Below are positions 21,444 through 39,620 of a stretch of 64,000 nucleotides of DNA, one piece after another. Within the stretch, counting starts at the first letter, position 1, and each line of letters opens with the position of its first letter. Location: assembly GCF_016026235.1 (NCBI RefSeq), contig NZ_CP065613.1. One strand, written 5' to 3'. The notes beneath the pieces were generated by a model. The model worked only from the letters and a program-made list of their open reading frames with translations, searched no databases and was not told where the DNA came from. The translations under genes were made by a program, and so were the position numbers. This DNA is from Escherichia coli. GTDB taxonomy: Bacteria > Pseudomonadota > Gammaproteobacteria > Enterobacterales > Enterobacteriaceae.

Positions 21444-22715
21444 ATGCAGCACAACACACTACCGAAACACGATCAGAAATTGCCGTTTACACGCTACGAC
21501 TTCGGCTGGGTTTTATTATGCATAGGCATGGCGATTGGTGCCGGAACCGTGCTGATGCCAGTACAAATTGGCTTGAAGGGAATTTGGGTATTTATTACCG
21601 CAGCGATCATTGCTTATCCTGCCACCTGGGTAGTGCAGGACATTTATTTAAAAACCCTTTCTGAAAGCGATTCCTGTAATGACTACACCGATATTATCAG
21701 TCATTACCTGGGGAAGAACTGGGGAATTTTCCTCGGGGTTATCTACTTTTTGATGATTATCCACGGGATTTTTATCTACTCTCTCTCCGTGGTTTTCGAC
21801 AGCGCCTCGTACCTGAAAACCTTCGGTTTAACCGATGCCGATCTTTCACAATCTCTACTTTATAAAGTCGCCATTTTCGCCGTACTGGTGGCGATTGCGT
21901 CTGGTGGTGAACGATTACTGTTTAAGATTTCTGGGCCAATGGTGGTGGTCAAAGTAGGGATTATTGTCGTGTTCGGTTTTGCGATGATCCCGCACTGGAA
22001 TTTCGCCAATATAACCGCCTTCCCGCAAGCCTCCGTCTTTTTCCGCGATGTCCTGCTTACCATTCCATTTTGCTTCTTTTCTGCGGTATTTATTCAGGTA
22101 CTTAACCCAATGAATATTGCCTATCGTAAACGGGAAGCAGATAAAGTACTGGCAACCCGGCTCGCGCTGCGTACCCACCGAATTAGTTATATCACGCTCA
22201 TCGCGGTGATACTGTTTTTTGCCTTTTCGTTTACCTTCTCAATTAGCCACGAAAAAGCCGTTTCTGCCTTTGAACAAAATATCTCGGCACTGGCACTGGC
22301 CGCGCAGGTGATCCCTGGACATATCATTCATATCACCTCTACGGTGCTGAATATCTTTGCCGTACTGACCGCATTCTTTGGCATTTATCTCGGTTTCCAC
22401 GAGGCCATTAAAGGCATTATTCTCAATCTGTTAAGCCGAATTATTGATACCAAGAAAATTAACTCACGCATGCTGACTCTGGCGATCTGCACTTTTATCG
22501 TCATTACGTTGACGATTTGGGTTTCGTTTCGTGTATCGGTGCTGGTGTTCTTTCAGTTGGGAAGCCCGTTATATGGCATTGTGTCGTGCCTCATTCCGTT
22601 TTTCCTGATCTATAAAGTCGCACAACTGGAAAAACTTCGCGGATTTAAAGCCTGGCTGATTCTGCTTTACGGCATTTTGCTATGCTTGTCGCCACTGTTG
22701 AAGCTGATTGAGTAA
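21444..22715 (+). CDS. yhjV: Predicted amino-acid/serine-type inner-membrane transporter
   Basis: ORF track gives 444 aa; trimmed to the [11 protein letters not shown] start (ATG verified at 21444) gives 423 aa, matching E. coli YhjV. Multi-pass hydrophobic protein. Confidence 0.88.
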
Positions 22716-22744
22716 ACCGGAGCGCATGGCCCCGGTTTTGTGAG

Positions 22745-23745
22745 TTAACGCTGCGGATTTTCATCCTGATCAACAGCAAAACAAGCTACCAGTTGACCGC
22801 CGTAGTCTTTTAGCTGCGGCTGCAACTGGGTGCAGGGGCCGAAGCGCCGACGACAGCGGGCGTTAAACGCGCAGCCCGGCGGTGGATTCAGCGGGCTTGG
22901 TAGTTCACCGGTGAGTTTGATGCGCTCGCGGCGATCGTCCGGGTTCAGGCGTGGTGTAGCGGAAAGTAGCGCCTGAGTGTACGGATGACGCGGGTTATTG
23001 AAGATTTGGTCTTTCATTCCCTTCTCCACGCAGCGGCCCAGGTACATCACCATCACGTCATCGGCAATGTGCTCCACCACCGACAGGTCGTGGGAGATAA
23101 AGACATAAGAAAGCCCCAGTTCCTGCTGTAAATCCATCATCAGATTCAGCACCTGCGCACGCACTGAGACATCCAGCGCGGAAACCGGCTCATCGGCAAT
23201 CACCACATCCGGGTCGAGCATCAGACCTCGGGCAATGGCGATACGCTGACGCTGACCGCCGGAGAACATATGCGGATAGCGGTCATAGTGCTCGGTTTTC
23301 AGGCCGACTTTCGCCATCATCGACAGGGCTTTTTCCCGACGCTGTTCTTTGCTTAAGCTGGTGTTGATCAGCAGCGGCTCTTCAAGAATTTGCCCGACTT
23401 TTTTACGCGGATTCAGCGAACCGTAAGGGTTCTGGAAGACAATCTGGATTTTCTGCCGACGCAGCTTCTGCGCCTGCGGATCGTGCTTAAGCAGATCCTG
23501 CCCCTGGTAATACAGCTCGCCGCCGGTGGGCGTTTCAATCATCGTCAGCAACCGACCGAGGGTCGATTTACCGCAGCCAGATTCGCCCACTACCGCCAGC
23601 GTTTTGCCACGTTCAAGGTTAAACGAAACGCCATCCAGCGCTTTAACCAGACGTTCCGGCGCGAACATGCTTTTCTTCACCGGATAATGTTTTTTCAGGT
23701 CGATAGCCTGCAACAGCGGTTGTTGCGAGGTGGCCTCATGCGTAC

Positions 23746-36244: not shown

Positions 36245-36781
36245 TTACTCGTAAGACAGGTTGAAATCGACCTGCGCATTGCCGTAACCGGTCGTTACCG
36301 TTGCCAGAGTTGAAACGTAGTTGGCGGTAAAGTAGAGAACCGTCTGGCCTTTACTCAGATCAACACTTGCTTTACCACCGTTAAGAGCGACCAGGGTGTT
36401 GCTGTTATCATAAATACCGATACCAACACCTTTCGCCGCACCGGCTTCAGTACTAACAGAAATCAGATCAGATTGATCTGCATCACCGACACCGCTAAAG
36501 CTCACATTGGCTTTTTTCATCGTAGTGGTATCGCAGTCTTCCAGTTTAATTTCGAAGGGTTTTGCCGGGGATTTATCACCAACCGCAGCAAATACAGATT
36601 TTTGTACCTGACCCAACACAACTTCCTGATTCTGAGAGTCAACGGACAGTACGCAAGGTGAATCCACGATCTCGCCTGTAAATTTAACCGTGCCGTCACC
36701 AGACTCTGCTGCGAATACAGTGCCAGAAGTTAACGCCAGTGCGGTTAAGGCAAAAACGACCTTTTTCATGAAAAACTCCAT
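36245..36781 (-). CDS. lpfA: Major fimbrial subunit (LpfA-like)
   Basis: 178-aa ORF with a signal peptide (MKKVVFALTALALTSGTVFA), a conserved Cys pair and a C-terminal GYGNAQVDFNLSYE motif; strongly resembles the Salmonella/E. coli LpfA I recall. Confidence 0.8.
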   Translation of the reverse strand: MEFFMKKVVFALTALALTSGTVFAAESGDGTVKFTGEIVDSPCVLSVDSQNQEVVLGQVQKSVFAAVGDKSPAKPFEIKLEDCDTTTMKKANVSFSGVGDADQSDLISVSTEAGAAKGVGIGIYDNSNTLVALNGGKASVDLSKGQTVLYFTANYVSTLATVTTGYGNAQVDFNLSYE

Positions 36782-37082
36782 TTAAAAAATTACATTAAAA
36801 AGAAAATCTTGATGTATCAAAATCGACAACTTTGAAGGAAGGATTATACAATTAAATACGAATAATAAAATTATACGAATAATATATTAATAGCACATCC
36901 AATTTTAAATCTTAAAAAAAATCATTGCGTTACATTTTTACATAAAAAGCTATCGTTTATTTTTAGGAATAAATAAATATAAAATATCAATTAAACAAAA
37001 CAAAAACATTCACCACACAAATAATAAGATAAAATATTTTCATTTTTATTCTTTAAAATGTAATAAAAAAGGAGGATTTCCT
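36782..37082 (-). promoter_or_regulatory. Extremely AT-rich upstream region of the lpf operon (probable promoter / nucleoid-protein-bound region)
   Basis: About 300 bp that are overwhelmingly A/T, directly upstream of lpfA. Specific promoter elements not resolved. Confidence 0.4.
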
Positions 37083-38376
37083 CTGAGGGATCCCCAGAAA
37101 ATTTAGTAAACCATTATCATATTGGTATACCGTTGCTGTAGAACTTTCAGCCCTGCGTCAAGTGACAGTGTGTTTAGTATGAGTGGAGAATGTCGAATCA
37201 CATTCTCCGCCAGTTTTAATAACGAGATGACTCGCCTGTGCTTCACTGTATTTGCCTGATATTTATGATGTATCCCTTTGTTTTCCAGGCTGAAACCGCT
37301 TAACCACATAATGATACTGGCTAATGTTGCGATCAGACTCAATACCGTGACCCGCCCGGATGAATGACTGGCACCAAACCGTAGTCCAAATCCCCAGCGA
37401 GGATTTTTTTCATCCCTGAAATTTTGCTCAATTTGCATTCTACGGCTGTATAATTTCATTACCTGTTTTGGCGAGAACTCAGTACTGTTTGTGAAAATAA
37501 ACCATGGTGATTTCCCGGCAGTACGAGCTTTAGCCGTCACCGATGGTCTGGTTGCTCTTTCCTTCGAGCGTTTAAATCTACGACCTTTAGGCTTACTTTT
37601 ATAAAGATAAAAATGCCCTTCATGTTGTGCATTTTTATCTCGACCCAGCAGGCCTTCACCTAAATAAATTGCTGTCGTTGATGCTTTTGTGCCTGAGTCC
37701 GACACCTTTTCCCAGCCATTACCAACATTGTAATAATGATTGCCCAGTACCCGGCAAATATAGGTCCAGCCACGGGAGCGGAGCTGTTGGAACCATCGCC
37801 CCTGAAAACCGGCATCTGTAATAACAATGACATCAGTCCCGGGGGAAAAGCACTCAGCAAGCGATTCCAGAAAACGCTCATGTACATCTGCATTCGCTGT
37901 CTGTGATGATGGAACGACACAACTCATCAACGGTAAAGAACGCCCGTCACATGCCAGGCTTGCCCGCAAAAGCTGAAAACGAGAGGCATGATAAGCACTC
38001 CAGTCAATGAGTATCACAACACGAGACATTCCCCGCGTAATCTTTTGGGTAATTCGCTGAAAAATGGTGGAAACCTCATTTTGCAAATGTCGATTCCCCA
38101 ACAGTCGATCCACCCGCTTTATTTTGTTTTTAACTGATGCCGTACCGGTTAAATGACGCCCGATACTGGTAAGTGTGAGGGAAGCGCCATTTATTACAGC
38201 ATTAGTTGCGTCAATCAGTGATTTTTGACGGTAAAGATGCAAAGGGGCCAGTATGTTGTTAAGGAAATTTTGGCATAATGAACGTGCAGGCATAGTGGTG
38301 ATCTCCTTGAAATTGTTAGCACAATCAATTAGATCACATCTCACTATGCCTGTCTTGTTTTCTGGGGATTCCTCAG
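37083..38376 (-). mobile_element. IS10-like insertion sequence (IS4 family), about 1.29 kb, with imperfect terminal inverted repeats and flanking direct repeats
   Basis: Left end CTGAGGGATCCCCAGAAAA (37083-) and right end, reverse-complemented, CTGAGGAATCCCCAGAAAA resemble the IS10 termini I recall (CTGAxGAATCCCC). Flanked by AGGATTTCCT at 37073-37082 and 38377-38386, so the boundary is uncertain by 1 bp. Confidence 0.8.
37103..38293 (-). CDS. IS4-family (IS10-like) DDE transposase
   Basis: ORF track gives 443 aa from 38434; the likely real start is the ATG at 38291-38293, inside the IS (MPARSLCQNF..., 396 aa). Motifs shared with IS10 transposase: IKRVDRLLGNRHL, VITDAGF, YSRRMQIEQNFRD. Confidence 0.8.
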   Translation of the reverse strand: MPARSLCQNFLNNILAPLHLYRQKSLIDATNAVINGASLTLTSIGRHLTGTASVKNKIKRVDRLLGNRHLQNEVSTIFQRITQKITRGMSRVVILIDWSAYHASRFQLLRASLACDGRSLPLMSCVVPSSQTANADVHERFLESLAECFSPGTDVIVITDAGFQGRWFQQLRSRGWTYICRVLGNHYYNVGNGWEKVSDSGTKASTTAIYLGEGLLGRDKNAQHEGHFYLYKSKPKGRRFKRSKERATRPSVTAKARTAGKSPWFIFTNSTEFSPKQVMKLYSRRMQIEQNFRDEKNPRWGFGLRFGASHSSGRVTVLSLIATLASIIMWLSGFSLENKGIHHKYQANTVKHRRVISLLKLAENVIRHSPLILNTLSLDAGLKVLQQRYTNMIMVY

Positions 38377-38417
38377 AGGATTTCCTCCCCCTTTCGTTCA
38401 AAATCTGTAGTTTCTGG

Positions 38418-39620
38418 CTAAATATGCGCCTCACGCAATACTTTCTGCTCTGGCTGACGAATCGTCGTAGAAAGCGCCAATGACAGAATCAGCAGAGCAA
38501 AGATGACGTAGAACGTCACATAGAAGCCGCCAAACAGTGAGGCAATAATCGAACCACAAATGCTACCGATACCGAAACCGAGGTAAATCACACCGTAGTT
38601 TTTCGCCAGGTTATTGAGGCCGAAGAACTCACTGACCAGTGACGGAAAGACGGTAATAGTGCCGCCAAAGTTAAATGCCACGCAGGCAATCGCTGCAAAG
38701 AACATCACTGCATTCAATGGTGCAAACAGCAGGGCCGCCATACCCACCAGCGAAATTACCTGACCAATGGTGATAACACGGATACGGGCGATTTTGTCAG
38801 ACAGAATGCCCAGCACCAGACGACCTGAAAGGTTAGCAATAGAAATAACCGTTACTGCGTTGGCTGCGGAAATTGCATCAAGATGCGCCAGGCTCTGAGC
38901 AATATCTTTCGCCACACCAATCACATACAGACCGCTCATGCAGGCAGTAAGGAACATCACCGCTAACATCCAGTACTGCGGTTTACGCATCGACTCTGCC
39001 AGCGTGTAATCTTTCTCCACTACGCCATTGCTGGTTTTCACTTCCTGTTTTGGTGCGTCTTTCATTAACGTTGCGCCGAAAACAATCATCACCAGCGCAA
39101 TCGCTCCCCAAATCACAAAGGTTTTTTCCAGACCGACCGTTTCCAGCAGCTGCGTGTCGATAAATTTGAAACCCAGGCTACCCAGACCATAAGAACCGAT
39201 AGCGAACGCGGAGATCAGACCTTTACGCTCCGGGAACCACTTCACGCAGTTAGAGAGCGTCAGCAGGTAACCCGCGCCATCCGCCAGACCGACCAGCACA
39301 CCGGCGCTTAACCACAGCATCATCAGGTTGTCAGAATGCGCTGTCAGGAAGAACCCTAATCCCAGCAAAATGCCGGAAGCGATGGTGACGCGTTTAACAC
39401 CAAAACGTTCCTGCAATTTGCCCGCAACAGAAGACGAAATTGCCAGCCCCAGACTTAACAAGCCGAAAGAGAAAGCGACCTGGCTTACCGGCGCATCCAG
39501 CTTGGCGGAAAGCGCGCCGTTAAACAGGCTCCAGGTATAAACCGACCCCAGCGCAAACTGGGTAATGATAGTACCGATGAGTGTCAGCCAGCGGGTACGC
39601 TGATAATTTGAAGGTGTCAT
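38418..39620 (-). CDS. yhjX: MFS-family transporter (putative oxalate/formate antiporter-like)
   Basis: ORF track gives 415 aa; trimmed to the MTPSNYQRTRW start (ATG verified at 39618-39620). Multi-pass MFS-like protein matching YhjX. C-terminus not checked against a reference. Confidence 0.85.
   Translation of the reverse strand: MTPSNYQRTRWLTLIGTIITQFALGSVYTWSLFNGALSAKLDAPVSQVAFSFGLLSLGLAISSSVAGKLQERFGVKRVTIASGILLGLGFFLTAHSDNLMMLWLSAGVLVGLADGAGYLLTLSNCVKWFPERKGLISAFAIGSYGLGSLGFKFIDTQLLETVGLEKTFVIWGAIALVMIVFGATLMKDAPKQEVKTSNGVVEKDYTLAESMRKPQYWMLAVMFLTACMSGLYVIGVAKDIAQSLAHLDAISAANAVTVISIANLSGRLVLGILSDKIARIRVITIGQVISLVGMAALLFAPLNAVMFFAAIACVAFNFGGTITVFPSLVSEFFGLNNLAKNYGVIYLGFGIGSICGSIIASLFGGFYVTFYVIFALLILSLALSTTIRQPEQKVLREAHI

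Follow-up and report, generated by a model that had tools for sequence, protein, structure and literature searches.

A complete ISEc60 copy in the apical loop of the yhjX terminator hairpin, upstream of the lpf operon of Escherichia coli

Introduction

IS10 is usually found as the arms of Tn10, has NGCTNAGCN as its target and GATCAAAT as the -10 element of its inward promoter, and carries an outward promoter that is able to activate neighbouring genes. According to De Palmenaer et al. (2008, PMC2266710), an element of the IS4 family has one transposase ORF, duplicates roughly one helical turn of target DNA, and encodes a transposase with a DDE triad spaced D(60~110)D(100~150)E and the motif Y-(2)-R-(3)-E-(6)-K, while the IS10 subgroup is characterized by a length of 1200–1350 bp, 5'-CT ends and 9-bp direct repeats (Table 1, PMC2266710). 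IS186, which also belongs to the IS4 family, enters a highly specific palindromic target, 5'-GGGG(N6/N7)CCCC-3', in either orientation at the same site and duplicates a core of 6–7 bp located between the G and C runs (PMC5009759). Extragenic palindromes, which are neutral sites, are entered by ISRm22 (IS4 family), IS1397, ISKpn1, IS621 and ISPpu9/10 (PMC1525189, PMC2266710); except for ISRm22, the ISs that target REP sequences or palindromes belong to the IS3 and IS110 families (PMC1525189).

Here we describe an IS10-like element located between lpfA and yhjX in a 64-kb window (the whole stretch of E. coli DNA analysed). It shows the features of the IS4 family, with DDE spacing in the published range, the YREK signature, one ORF and a 10-bp duplication, as well as the size and ends of the IS10 subgroup (1294 bp, CTGAG at both ends). 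However, its duplication of 10 bp departs from the 9-bp direct repeat of that subgroup.

Results

Extent and identity of the element

The element, its ends and its immediate surroundings comprise the following features.

37083–38376, minus strand (orientation according to the transposase gene): ISEc60, complete 1294-bp IS, 100% identical to annotated copies
37083–37101, plus strand: transposase-distal inverted repeat CTGAGGGATCCCCAGAAAA, holding the Dam site GATC at 37089–37092
38358–38376, minus strand: transposase-proximal inverted repeat CTGAGGAATCCCCAGAAAA, without GATC
37073–37082: left copy of the 10-bp target-site duplication AGGATTTCCT, exact repeat
38377–38386: right copy of the 10-bp target-site duplication AGGATTTCCT, exact repeat
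36245–36769, minus strand: lpfA1, start 314 bp from the IS; heads an lpfABCDE operon that appears intact, from ORFs and homologous RefSeq loci
38418–39620, minus strand: yhjX (MFS transporter), from the ORF and the RefSeq annotation of the identical WP_038341559.1

Over all 1294 bp the element is a 100% match to RefSeq copies labelled 'IS4-like element ISEc60 family transposase', and copies of the same sequence are present on chromosomes and plasmids of E. coli CFSAN029787, RMDEC332/364, VL46 and FDAARGOS_943. The name ISEc60 is that of the RefSeq/PGAP annotation of identical copies (after ISfinder); in the literature searched it is mentioned by only two papers, outside their titles and abstracts. 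Judged by its sequence, the element is the catalogued ISEc60, an ordinary known mobile element and not a new one.

Reading of the sequence gives CTGAGGGATCCCC at 37083–37095 and its near-complement GGGGATTCCTCAG at 38364–38376, and the terminal inverted repeats extend over 19 matched nucleotides with one mismatch. Across the whole 64-kb window the 19-nt end pattern is found only twice, at these two termini, whereas 100 shuffles gave an expectation of 0.00. This search found no second ISEc60 copy in the window, and no long inverted or direct repeats touching the ISEc60 region were present there. The GATC-bearing distal end is also seen in IS10A, ISSfl1 and a relative from Pantoea. The exact repeat around ISEc60 is in fact 12 nt long, its copies spaced 1304 bp apart, since a flanking G and C happen to equal the bases at the IS tips. 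Comparison of more than 10 other copies sets the true ends as CTGAG...CTCAG, and therefore the IS measures 1294 bp and the duplication 10 bp.

Removal of the IS together with one copy of the duplication reconstructs an empty site, which is present letter for letter in E. coli EC2641, whose flanks are 99.9% identical. EC2641 carries one copy of AGGATTTCCT and lacks exactly 1304 bp and nothing more; in the other lpf-positive genomes compared, the flank matches likewise span about 1304 bp less than the query. The exact empty site in EC2641 and the 10-bp duplication prove a simple insertion.

The yhjX stop codon (38418–38420) is 41 bp away from the right end of the IS; the left end is situated upstream of lpfA, at a distance of 302–314 bp according to which start codon is taken. 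The transposase gene, yhjX and lpfA are all on the minus strand. These observations bear out the original prediction in its description of a 1294-bp element with IS10-type termini (12/13 positions shared with IS10A at each end), of an identical 10-mer on both sides, of a simple transposition and of the distances to the two genes, and the comparison with genomes lacking the IS that it had proposed is provided by EC2641. Its suggestion of a distinct family member is right as well, although that member was already catalogued, as ISEc60.

Transposase

37103–38293, minus strand: transposase gene, 396 aa plus stop; ATG at 38291–38293, Shine-Dalgarno AAGGAG at 38303–38308

ISEc60 carries a single, uninterrupted transposase ORF. 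At 1191 nt, its CDS is as long as the one that RefSeq annotates in other ISEc60 copies, and its protein is identical to WP_001111632.1, as it is in many identical copies. It is matched by NCBIfam NF033591 (IS4 family; E 8.5e-108) and by Pfam DDE_Tnp_1 (E 2.8e-20). Residues D97, D160 and E289 fall in the alignment columns of the IS10A catalytic motifs, and YSRRMQIEQNFRDEK, which carries the Y-2-R-3-E-6-K motif, aligns with YAKRMQIEETFRDLK of IS10A. The transposase is 52% identical to that of ISSfl1 and 36% to that of IS10A/ISVsa5, the latter in an alignment spanning 93% of the protein (E 4e-64). In a spread sample of plasmid matches, the named element that follows ISSfl1 is IS10A/ISVsa5. The view that the transposase shares IS10 motifs yet has clearly diverged is thus upheld.

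Leader hairpin and candidate promoters

38287–38352, both strands: long hairpin, from folding and covariation
38328–38356, minus strand: candidate inward promoter (pIN-like); -35 AAGACA at 38351–38356, 17-bp spacer, -10 TCTAAT at 38328–38333
38271–38279, plus strand: candidate outward promoter (pOUT-like); extended -10 TGgCATAAT, read from the sequence

On the minus strand, the hairpin encloses the Shine-Dalgarno sequence and the AUG of any transposase mRNA started outside the IS (fold of -37.9 kcal/mol, z -5.8). On the plus strand, it appears as an RNA-OUT-like antisense stem-loop (-32 kcal/mol, z -4.6) followed by UCUUGUUUUCU at 38353–38363, a U-tract. Double (compensatory) changes are found in 6 of the 9 pairs of the outer stem among 37 relatives, a count confined to the outer stem, the inner stem being structurally unaligned in the MAFFT leader alignment; for the inner stem, compensation shows on visual inspection and when single sequences are folded. 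Because the 3' arm of the outer stem reaches over the start codon and the codons that follow it, coding accounts for part of its conservation. The same leader fold is present in every relative, IS10A included. The Rfam RNA-OUT model (RF00240) scores 16.8 bits (E 9.1) here, below its gathering score of 41, with an alignment that is full-length and in the homologous position, 38286–38356 on the plus strand.

A GATC at 38332–38335 overlaps the candidate inward -10, and the xxGACA and GATCTAxT blocks of this promoter are kept in the relatives. The predicted outward start falls near 38286, where the RNA-OUT model alignment begins, and the candidate convergent transcripts are predicted to overlap by about 36 nt, compared with about 35 nt in IS10-type RNA-IN/RNA-OUT control. 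Because a generic sigma-70 promoter scan listed neither candidate, we infer both from homology. The GATC of the distal end (37089–37092) and that of the inward -10 (38332–38335) are conserved in nearly all relatives.

By homology with IS10 and IS50, the two GATC sites may confer Dam dependence, the RNA-OUT-like transcript of the leader hairpin may act as an antisense regulator, and read-through transcripts would be silenced translationally by the fold-back hairpin.

The split yhjX terminator

38377–38394, minus strand: yhjX-side half of the split terminator, AAAGGGGGAGGAAATCCT; T-run lost
37065–37082, minus strand: lpf-side half of the split terminator, AGGAAATCCTCCTTTTTT; T-run kept, most of the 5' stem lost

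Analysis of the EC2641 empty site reveals an intrinsic terminator of yhjX, AAAGGGGGAGGAAATCCTCCTTTTTT, with a hairpin and a T-run on the yhjX strand and a fold of -14.6 kcal/mol when intact. ISEc60 splits the apical loop of this terminator. In the junction fold, the lpf-side half is left single-stranded or pairs with the IS end, without restoring the terminator stem; on visual inspection, this remnant allows at most a 4-bp GAGG/CCTC stem. The AT-rich region upstream of lpf is untouched, the IS lying at the far end of the original intergenic space, about 300 of whose 344 bp are on the lpf side. The literature searched yielded no usable information on a mapped lpf promoter or on H-NS/Ler sites.

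With its terminator gone, yhjX transcription would enter the IS and cross the transposase gene in sense orientation, and in such yhjX-derived transcripts the fold-back hairpin should leave the transposase untranslated. Transcription may also run on toward lpfA past the weakened terminator remnant, so that the loss of the terminator opens a possible route of transcription through the IS to the lpf fimbrial operon. Neither the terminator hairpin as the target nor the read-through of yhjX into the IS had been noticed in the original prediction.

Copies in other genomes

Among 5426 complete E. coli genomes, near-full-length ISEc60 is limited to 14, while 267 genomes have a match of any kind; EIEC genomes are among those with copies. 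The highest load, 38 places, is on the chromosome of FDAARGOS_943. Relatives at 82–99.6% identity include several that are frameshifted, and tandem pairs exist elsewhere, for example as IS-TSD-IS-TSD on pCFSAN029787_01.

No complete RefSeq E. coli genome searched has the intact lpfA-IS-yhjX arrangement, and none exceeds 98.4% identity to the left 25 kb of the window when the full length of that part is compared. Among these genomes the insertion site is otherwise occupied only in FDAARGOS_943, where both the lpfA and the yhjX junctions are present letter for letter, parted by a 254-kb inversion. The common junctions point to shared ancestry, and the insertion serves as a lineage marker for the two strains. 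The inversion separating lpf from yhjX is IS-mediated and shows that ISEc60 copies act as recombination substrates.

Target preference of the clade

Other ISEc60 copies are flanked by 10-bp (sometimes 11-bp) GGGnnnnCCC duplications inside GC-stem hairpins, and the targets seen are mostly single-copy terminator hairpins. We reconstructed 28 target sites of the clade, a few of which are the same site in different records and from which many of the 38 chromosomal copies of FDAARGOS_943 were left out. The duplication measures 10 bp in 24 of them, 11 bp in two and 9 bp in two. In 71% of the 28 sites the duplication lies at the centre of a perfect stem 5 bp or more in length, against 3.7% of 11,400 random flank positions. 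The preference of the clade for palindromes is thus well supported. The duplication may correspond to the 4-nt loop together with 3 bp of stem on each side, with half-sites GGG/CCC, GGC/GCC, CCC/GGG or CGC/GCG according to subclade. Three sites hold ISEc60 in both orientations, in different strains, and one site may therefore be struck independently both ways round.

It is possible, and we put it forward only tentatively, that target choice in the ISEc60/ISSfl1 clade depends on structure or symmetry, with insertion at the tips of GC-stem hairpins, most of which are intrinsic terminators. We found no description of such a 'safe harbour' strategy based on terminator loops for this clade in the literature searched. 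If true, such targeting would explain how 38 copies can accumulate in one genome with little gene disruption.

Discussion

The locus is best explained by one intact, probably active ISEc60 that entered the apical loop of the yhjX terminator in a single cut-and-paste insertion and duplicated 10 bp, a reading to which we assign a probability of roughly 0.93. By homology with IS10 and IS50, its DDE transposase would excise the element through hairpin intermediates and make a staggered attack on the symmetric GGG-N4-CCC target. As a catalogued IS at a neutral intergenic position, the locus itself is of small consequence.

A different emphasis, which we regard as doubtful, would place the main meaning of the insertion in regulation, either through an outward promoter reading antisense into the 3' end of yhjX, as the original prediction had proposed, or through lpf being driven or derepressed. 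The transposase-proximal end does face yhjX, with the candidate extended -10 TGgCATAAT pointing outward, and IS10 can switch on genes next to it from such a promoter; moreover, the yhjX terminator is destroyed and the genes are co-oriented, so that read-through toward lpfA is geometrically possible. However, an outward transcript would meet the -32 kcal/mol hairpin and the U-tract within the IS, and because of this RNA-OUT-like structure most such transcripts should end before yhjX. The region upstream of lpf is intact with the IS at its far end, and the choice of target is accounted for by the general preference for hairpin loops rather than by selection at this locus. The geometry of the proposed antisense transcription thus stands, and its reach into yhjX is improbable for most transcripts.

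It is less likely still that the copy is a dead relic, in which the duplication would mark an old event and neither present activity nor a regulatory role would remain. Many E. coli genomes do keep only ISEc60-like fragments, as the numbers of genomes with any match and with a near-full-length copy show, and frameshifts occur among the diverged relatives. Here, however, the intact ORF specifies WP_001111632.1, the protein that many identical copies also encode, both copies of the duplication are perfect, the inverted repeats are preserved at both ends, and the presence of up to 38 copies in one genome indicates recent expansion.

That ISEc60 serves as one arm of a composite transposon of the Tn10 type, or of a larger mobile unit, as the usual occurrence of IS10 in Tn10 and the known tandem ISEc60 pairs might suggest, is highly improbable and is ruled out within the 64-kb window, which holds a single pair of ends, this one copy and no long repeats involving the region, whose duplication brackets exactly 1294 bp, and from which EC2641 differs by exactly 1304 bp; the larger composite that the original prediction had named as speaking against it was accordingly not seen.

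Comparison with known systems

From the annotated ISEc60 copies, the present one shows no difference within the element, and its transposase and inverted repeats are alike. With IS10 (IS10R/IS10A) it shares a similar size (1294 bp vs 1328 bp), a single ORF, termini of the form CTGA..(G/A)ATCCCC that agree with IS10A at 12 of 13 positions at each end, the aligned DDE and Y-2-R-3-E-6-K residues and a start-codon hairpin that doubles as an antisense stem-loop. In both elements, GATC is found in the distal end only and over the inward -10, which reads GATCTAAT in ISEc60 vs GATCAAAT in IS10; the candidate -10 of ISEc60 is positionally analogous to that of IS10. However, amino acid identity is only 36% and the duplication is 10 bp instead of 9 bp, which rules out canonical IS10. 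The leader of ISEc60 is also about 25 bp shorter, and its target, a GGG-N4-CCC hairpin loop, is unlike that of IS10.

The closer relatives are ISSfl1 of the Shigella flexneri virulence plasmid (52% aa identity), whose 13-nt termini are identical to those of ISEc60, and an unnamed IS of Pantoea stewartii, whose 13-nt termini are nearly identical. Both have the same leader hairpin and insert into hairpin loops with 9–10-bp duplications, but they belong to other subclades, with half-sites CCC..GGG or GGC..GCC compared with GGG..CCC in ISEc60.

Like IS186, ISEc60 can occupy the same site in either orientation. In contrast to IS186 as described, it duplicates 10 bp, including three base pairs of the stem on each side. 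ISEc60 resembles the ISs that target REP sequences or palindromes in entering extragenic palindromes, but its targets seen here are mostly single-copy terminator hairpins and not a repeated REP family. Targeting of terminator loops by this clade, should it hold, would extend palindromic targeting of the IS186 type to the relatives of IS10.

Identity and structure of the element

The element at positions 37083–38376 of the window (minus strand) is ISEc60, a known insertion sequence which has been placed by ordinary transposition in the loop of the yhjX terminator. Over its 1294 bp it shows 100% identity to elements with a transposase that RefSeq calls "IS4-like element ISEc60 family transposase" (WP_001111632.1). 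Identical copies are present in E. coli CFSAN029787, RMDEC332, RMDEC364, VL46 and FDAARGOS_943, on the chromosome and on large plasmids. Full-length ISEc60 is rare (14 of 5426 complete genomes), with up to 38 places on the chromosome of one genome. The transposase matches NCBIfam NF033591 (IS4 family; E 8.5e-108) as well as Pfam DDE_Tnp_1, and is 36% identical to the transposases of IS10A and ISVsa5 and 52% identical to those of ISSfl1 and an unnamed Pantoea stewartii IS. Its nearest relatives in species-representative genomes are those of Yersinia artesiana and Candidatus Erwinia dacicola (86%) and Buttiauxella (73%). The original prediction of an IS10-like but distinct element holds, the element being already catalogued as ISEc60. 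The main features are as follows.

From 37083: transposase-distal tip CTGAGGGATCCCC, read directly from the sequence
Up to 38376: transposase-proximal tip GGGGATTCCTCAG, near-perfect inverted partner of CTGAGGGATCCCC, likewise read directly
37073–37082 and 38377–38386, on both sides of ISEc60: 10-bp target duplication AGGATTTCCT
ATG at 38293, minus strand: transposase ORF of 396 aa with AAGGAG upstream, the sole long ORF of ISEc60

The inverted repeats are 19 nt in length with one mismatch, and within the 64 kb the 19-nt end pattern is confined to these two ends (0.00 expected from shuffles). The exact direct repeat found by repeat search is a 12-mer (spacing 1304 bp) rather than a 10-mer because the base outside each copy of the duplication equals the base at the IS tip. 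Comparison of more than 10 other copies in different flanks sets the true tips at CTGAG...CTCAG, and therefore the IS is 1294 bp and the duplication 10 bp long. The structure described earlier is thus borne out by the sequence at 36800–38800.

Deleting the IS in silico, together with one copy of the repeat, yields a sequence that is present letter for letter in E. coli EC2641, a genome with 99.9% identity to the window in the flanks. In the remaining lpf-positive genomes among the listed matches, the flanks align over a span about 1304 bp below that of the query. This comparison with IS-free relatives confirms a simple in-situ transposition. A composite transposon is excluded, since the 64-kb window contains neither a second ISEc60 copy nor a long repeat touching this region.

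Elsewhere in the window, three tandem copies (96–98% alike, 483-bp period) occupy 19811–21076, between two ORFs. Over this stretch the best-matching E. coli genomes give a two-part alignment and lack 482 bp, which suggests one extra 483-bp unit in the window. No tRNA gene was found in window 18000–23000.

Comparison with IS10

In the alignment with IS10A, residues D97, D160 and E289 and the Y-2-R-3-E-6-K of ISEc60 share its columns. The 13-nt termini of ISEc60 are identical to those of ISSfl1 and, at either end, share 12 of 13 positions with IS10A. In all four elements compared (ISEc60, IS10A, ISSfl1 and the Pantoea IS), the distal end carries GGATCC with a Dam site inside while the proximal end carries AATCC without one (4/4 each). 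Such distal/proximal GATC asymmetry is the basis of Dam control in IS10. ISEc60 has all the traits by which the IS4 family is defined in PMC2266710, together with the size, ends and YREK of the IS10 subgroup; however, the duplication is 10 bp in ISEc60 and nearly all of its relatives, in contrast to the 9 bp of that subgroup.

Disruption of the yhjX terminator

At the empty site, the apex of AAAGGGGGAGG-AAAT-CCTCCTTTTTT (yhjX strand) consists of the 10 duplicated bases; this sequence begins about 20 nt past the yhjX stop codon. The hairpin is terminator-like by scan and folds with −14.6 kcal/mol; the yhjX terminator has therefore been cut in two by the IS. The yhjX-side half (window 38377–38394) keeps most of the hairpin and has lost the T-run, while in the lpf-side half (window 37065–37082) the T-run remains and most of the 5' stem is gone. 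A fold of the junction does not restore the terminator stem. As yhjX, the transposase gene and lpfA all lie on the minus strand, transcription from yhjX across the IS toward lpfA is geometrically possible. Apart from this, the AT-rich region upstream of lpf is unaltered, and lpfABCDE appears to be intact.

Putative regulation at the proximal end

The proximal end of ISEc60 appears to have a regulatory layout of the IS10 type, made up of the following features.

Proximal end: AAGACA, −35-like, inward candidate, of which xxGACA is kept in relatives
17 bp past AAGACA, proximal end: GATCTAAT, −10 candidate, from direct sequence reading
38287–38352: hairpin of 66 nt, whose 3' half holds the Shine-Dalgarno and start codon
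38271–38279, plus strand: TGgCATAAT, extended −10, outward candidate
Directly past the hairpin, plus strand, within the IS: UCUUGUUUUCU

A generic promoter scan reported neither the inward nor the outward candidate, and thus we infer this anatomy. The −10 of the IS10 inward promoter is overlapped by GATC, and GATCTAAT matches it in position. Folding of the hairpin gives −37.9 kcal/mol for the mRNA strand (z −5.8) and −32 kcal/mol for its complement (z −4.6). Among 37 aligned relatives, compensatory double changes are seen in 6 of the 9 outer-stem pairs, one of which is AU 13, CG 12 and UA 7 times, and the hairpin recurs in single-sequence folds of every relative and of IS10A. RNA from the putative inward promoter would be without the 5' arm and translatable, whereas RNA arriving from outside (here yhjX) would mask its start codon by folding back. 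Hiding the start codon by fold-back is the strategy of IS10, which ISEc60 probably shares.

On the plus strand, TGgCATAAT would launch an antisense RNA at about 38286. A full-length alignment of the Rfam RNA-OUT model (RF00240) lies at window 38286–38356 (plus strand), homologous in position to the IS10 antisense RNA, and begins at the predicted antisense start; its score is well below threshold (16.8 bits, E 9.1). An outward promoter reading into yhjX had been proposed. The extended −10 provides an outward candidate; however, the hairpin followed by UCUUGUUUUCU inside the IS should limit antisense transcription into yhjX to read-through.

ISEc60 copies in related genomes

The sole relative carrying the same IS without matching repeats is FDAARGOS_943 (NZ_CP065615.1; 3.896 Mb and 4.150 Mb), and its rearrangement accounts for this. 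The order there is lpfC-lpfB-lpfA-ISEc60-slyX at one place and, 254 kb off in the opposite strand, slyD-ISEc60-yhjX. Both IS copies match the window exactly, as do the junctions facing lpfA and yhjX, and a separate 10-bp duplication marks the slyD/slyX side. As read from these junctions, the same insertion was inherited, and a 254-kb inversion between inverted ISEc60 copies (lpfA/yhjX and slyD/slyX) then parted the lpf operon from yhjX.

In the same genome, the ISEc60 between iprA and ampH measures 2212 bp from end to end; inserted between its transposase gene and its proximal end is an IS5-family element whose own transposase is of the programmed-frameshift type. Plasmid pCFSAN029787_01 (NZ_CP011417.1, ~64.3–66.9 kb) holds a direct tandem pair, GGTAAATCCC-IS-GGTAAATCCC-IS-GGTAAATCCC, with exactly the 10-bp duplication between the copies, so that the central repeat is bracketed by two IS ends.

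Target choice

Other ISEc60 copies occupy the following sites.

slyD/slyX terminator: GGGAATCCCC
ibs/sib hairpin: GGGGAAACCC
CS1-type fimbrial operon, hairpin between the pilin and usher genes: GGGCTACCCC
Plasmid leading-region hairpin: GGGATTTTCC
iprA-ampH spacer: GGGATAACCA

At three of these (the CS1-type fimbrial operon, the plasmid leading region and iprA-ampH), ISEc60 is found in either orientation, depending on the strain, and the duplicated bases are the same. This suggests that hot spots were hit independently or that the IS inverted in situ. Across the ISEc60/ISSfl1 clade we rebuilt 28 target sites, a few of which are one site in different records. A perfect stem of at least 5 bp is centred on the duplication in 71% of them, against 3.7% of 11,400 random flank positions, and many have T-runs. 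The duplicated half-sites vary by subclade (GGG/CCC, GGC/GCC, CCC/GGG and CGC/GCG). Judged from these sites, target choice is a property of the element: throughout the clade, insertions fall at the apex of hairpins with GC stems, many being intrinsic terminators, and duplicate 10 bp.

Two plasmids have an 11-bp duplication at the homologous plasmid leading-region hairpin GGCGGGGATTTTCCCCGCC and a third has one of 10 bp, so the stagger varies somewhat. On the CFSAN029787 chromosome, two adjacent ibs/sib repeat units each carry an ISEc60 copy in the same hairpin GCGGGGTTTCCCCCGC; the two copies are 1.6 kb apart.

The clade-wide preference for terminator hairpin loops is the one lead worth keeping, the rest of the locus being of low interest. 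No description of hairpin targeting for the ISEc60/ISSfl1 clade was found in the literature searched. The IS4-family element IS231A prefers GGG(N)5CCC. Also within this family, IS186 targets GGGG(N6/7)CCCC in either orientation (PMC5009759) and ISRm22 uses REP sequences as insertion sites (PMC1525189). Since palindromic targeting is known in this family, the pattern of the ISEc60 clade is at most a variant of known behaviour.
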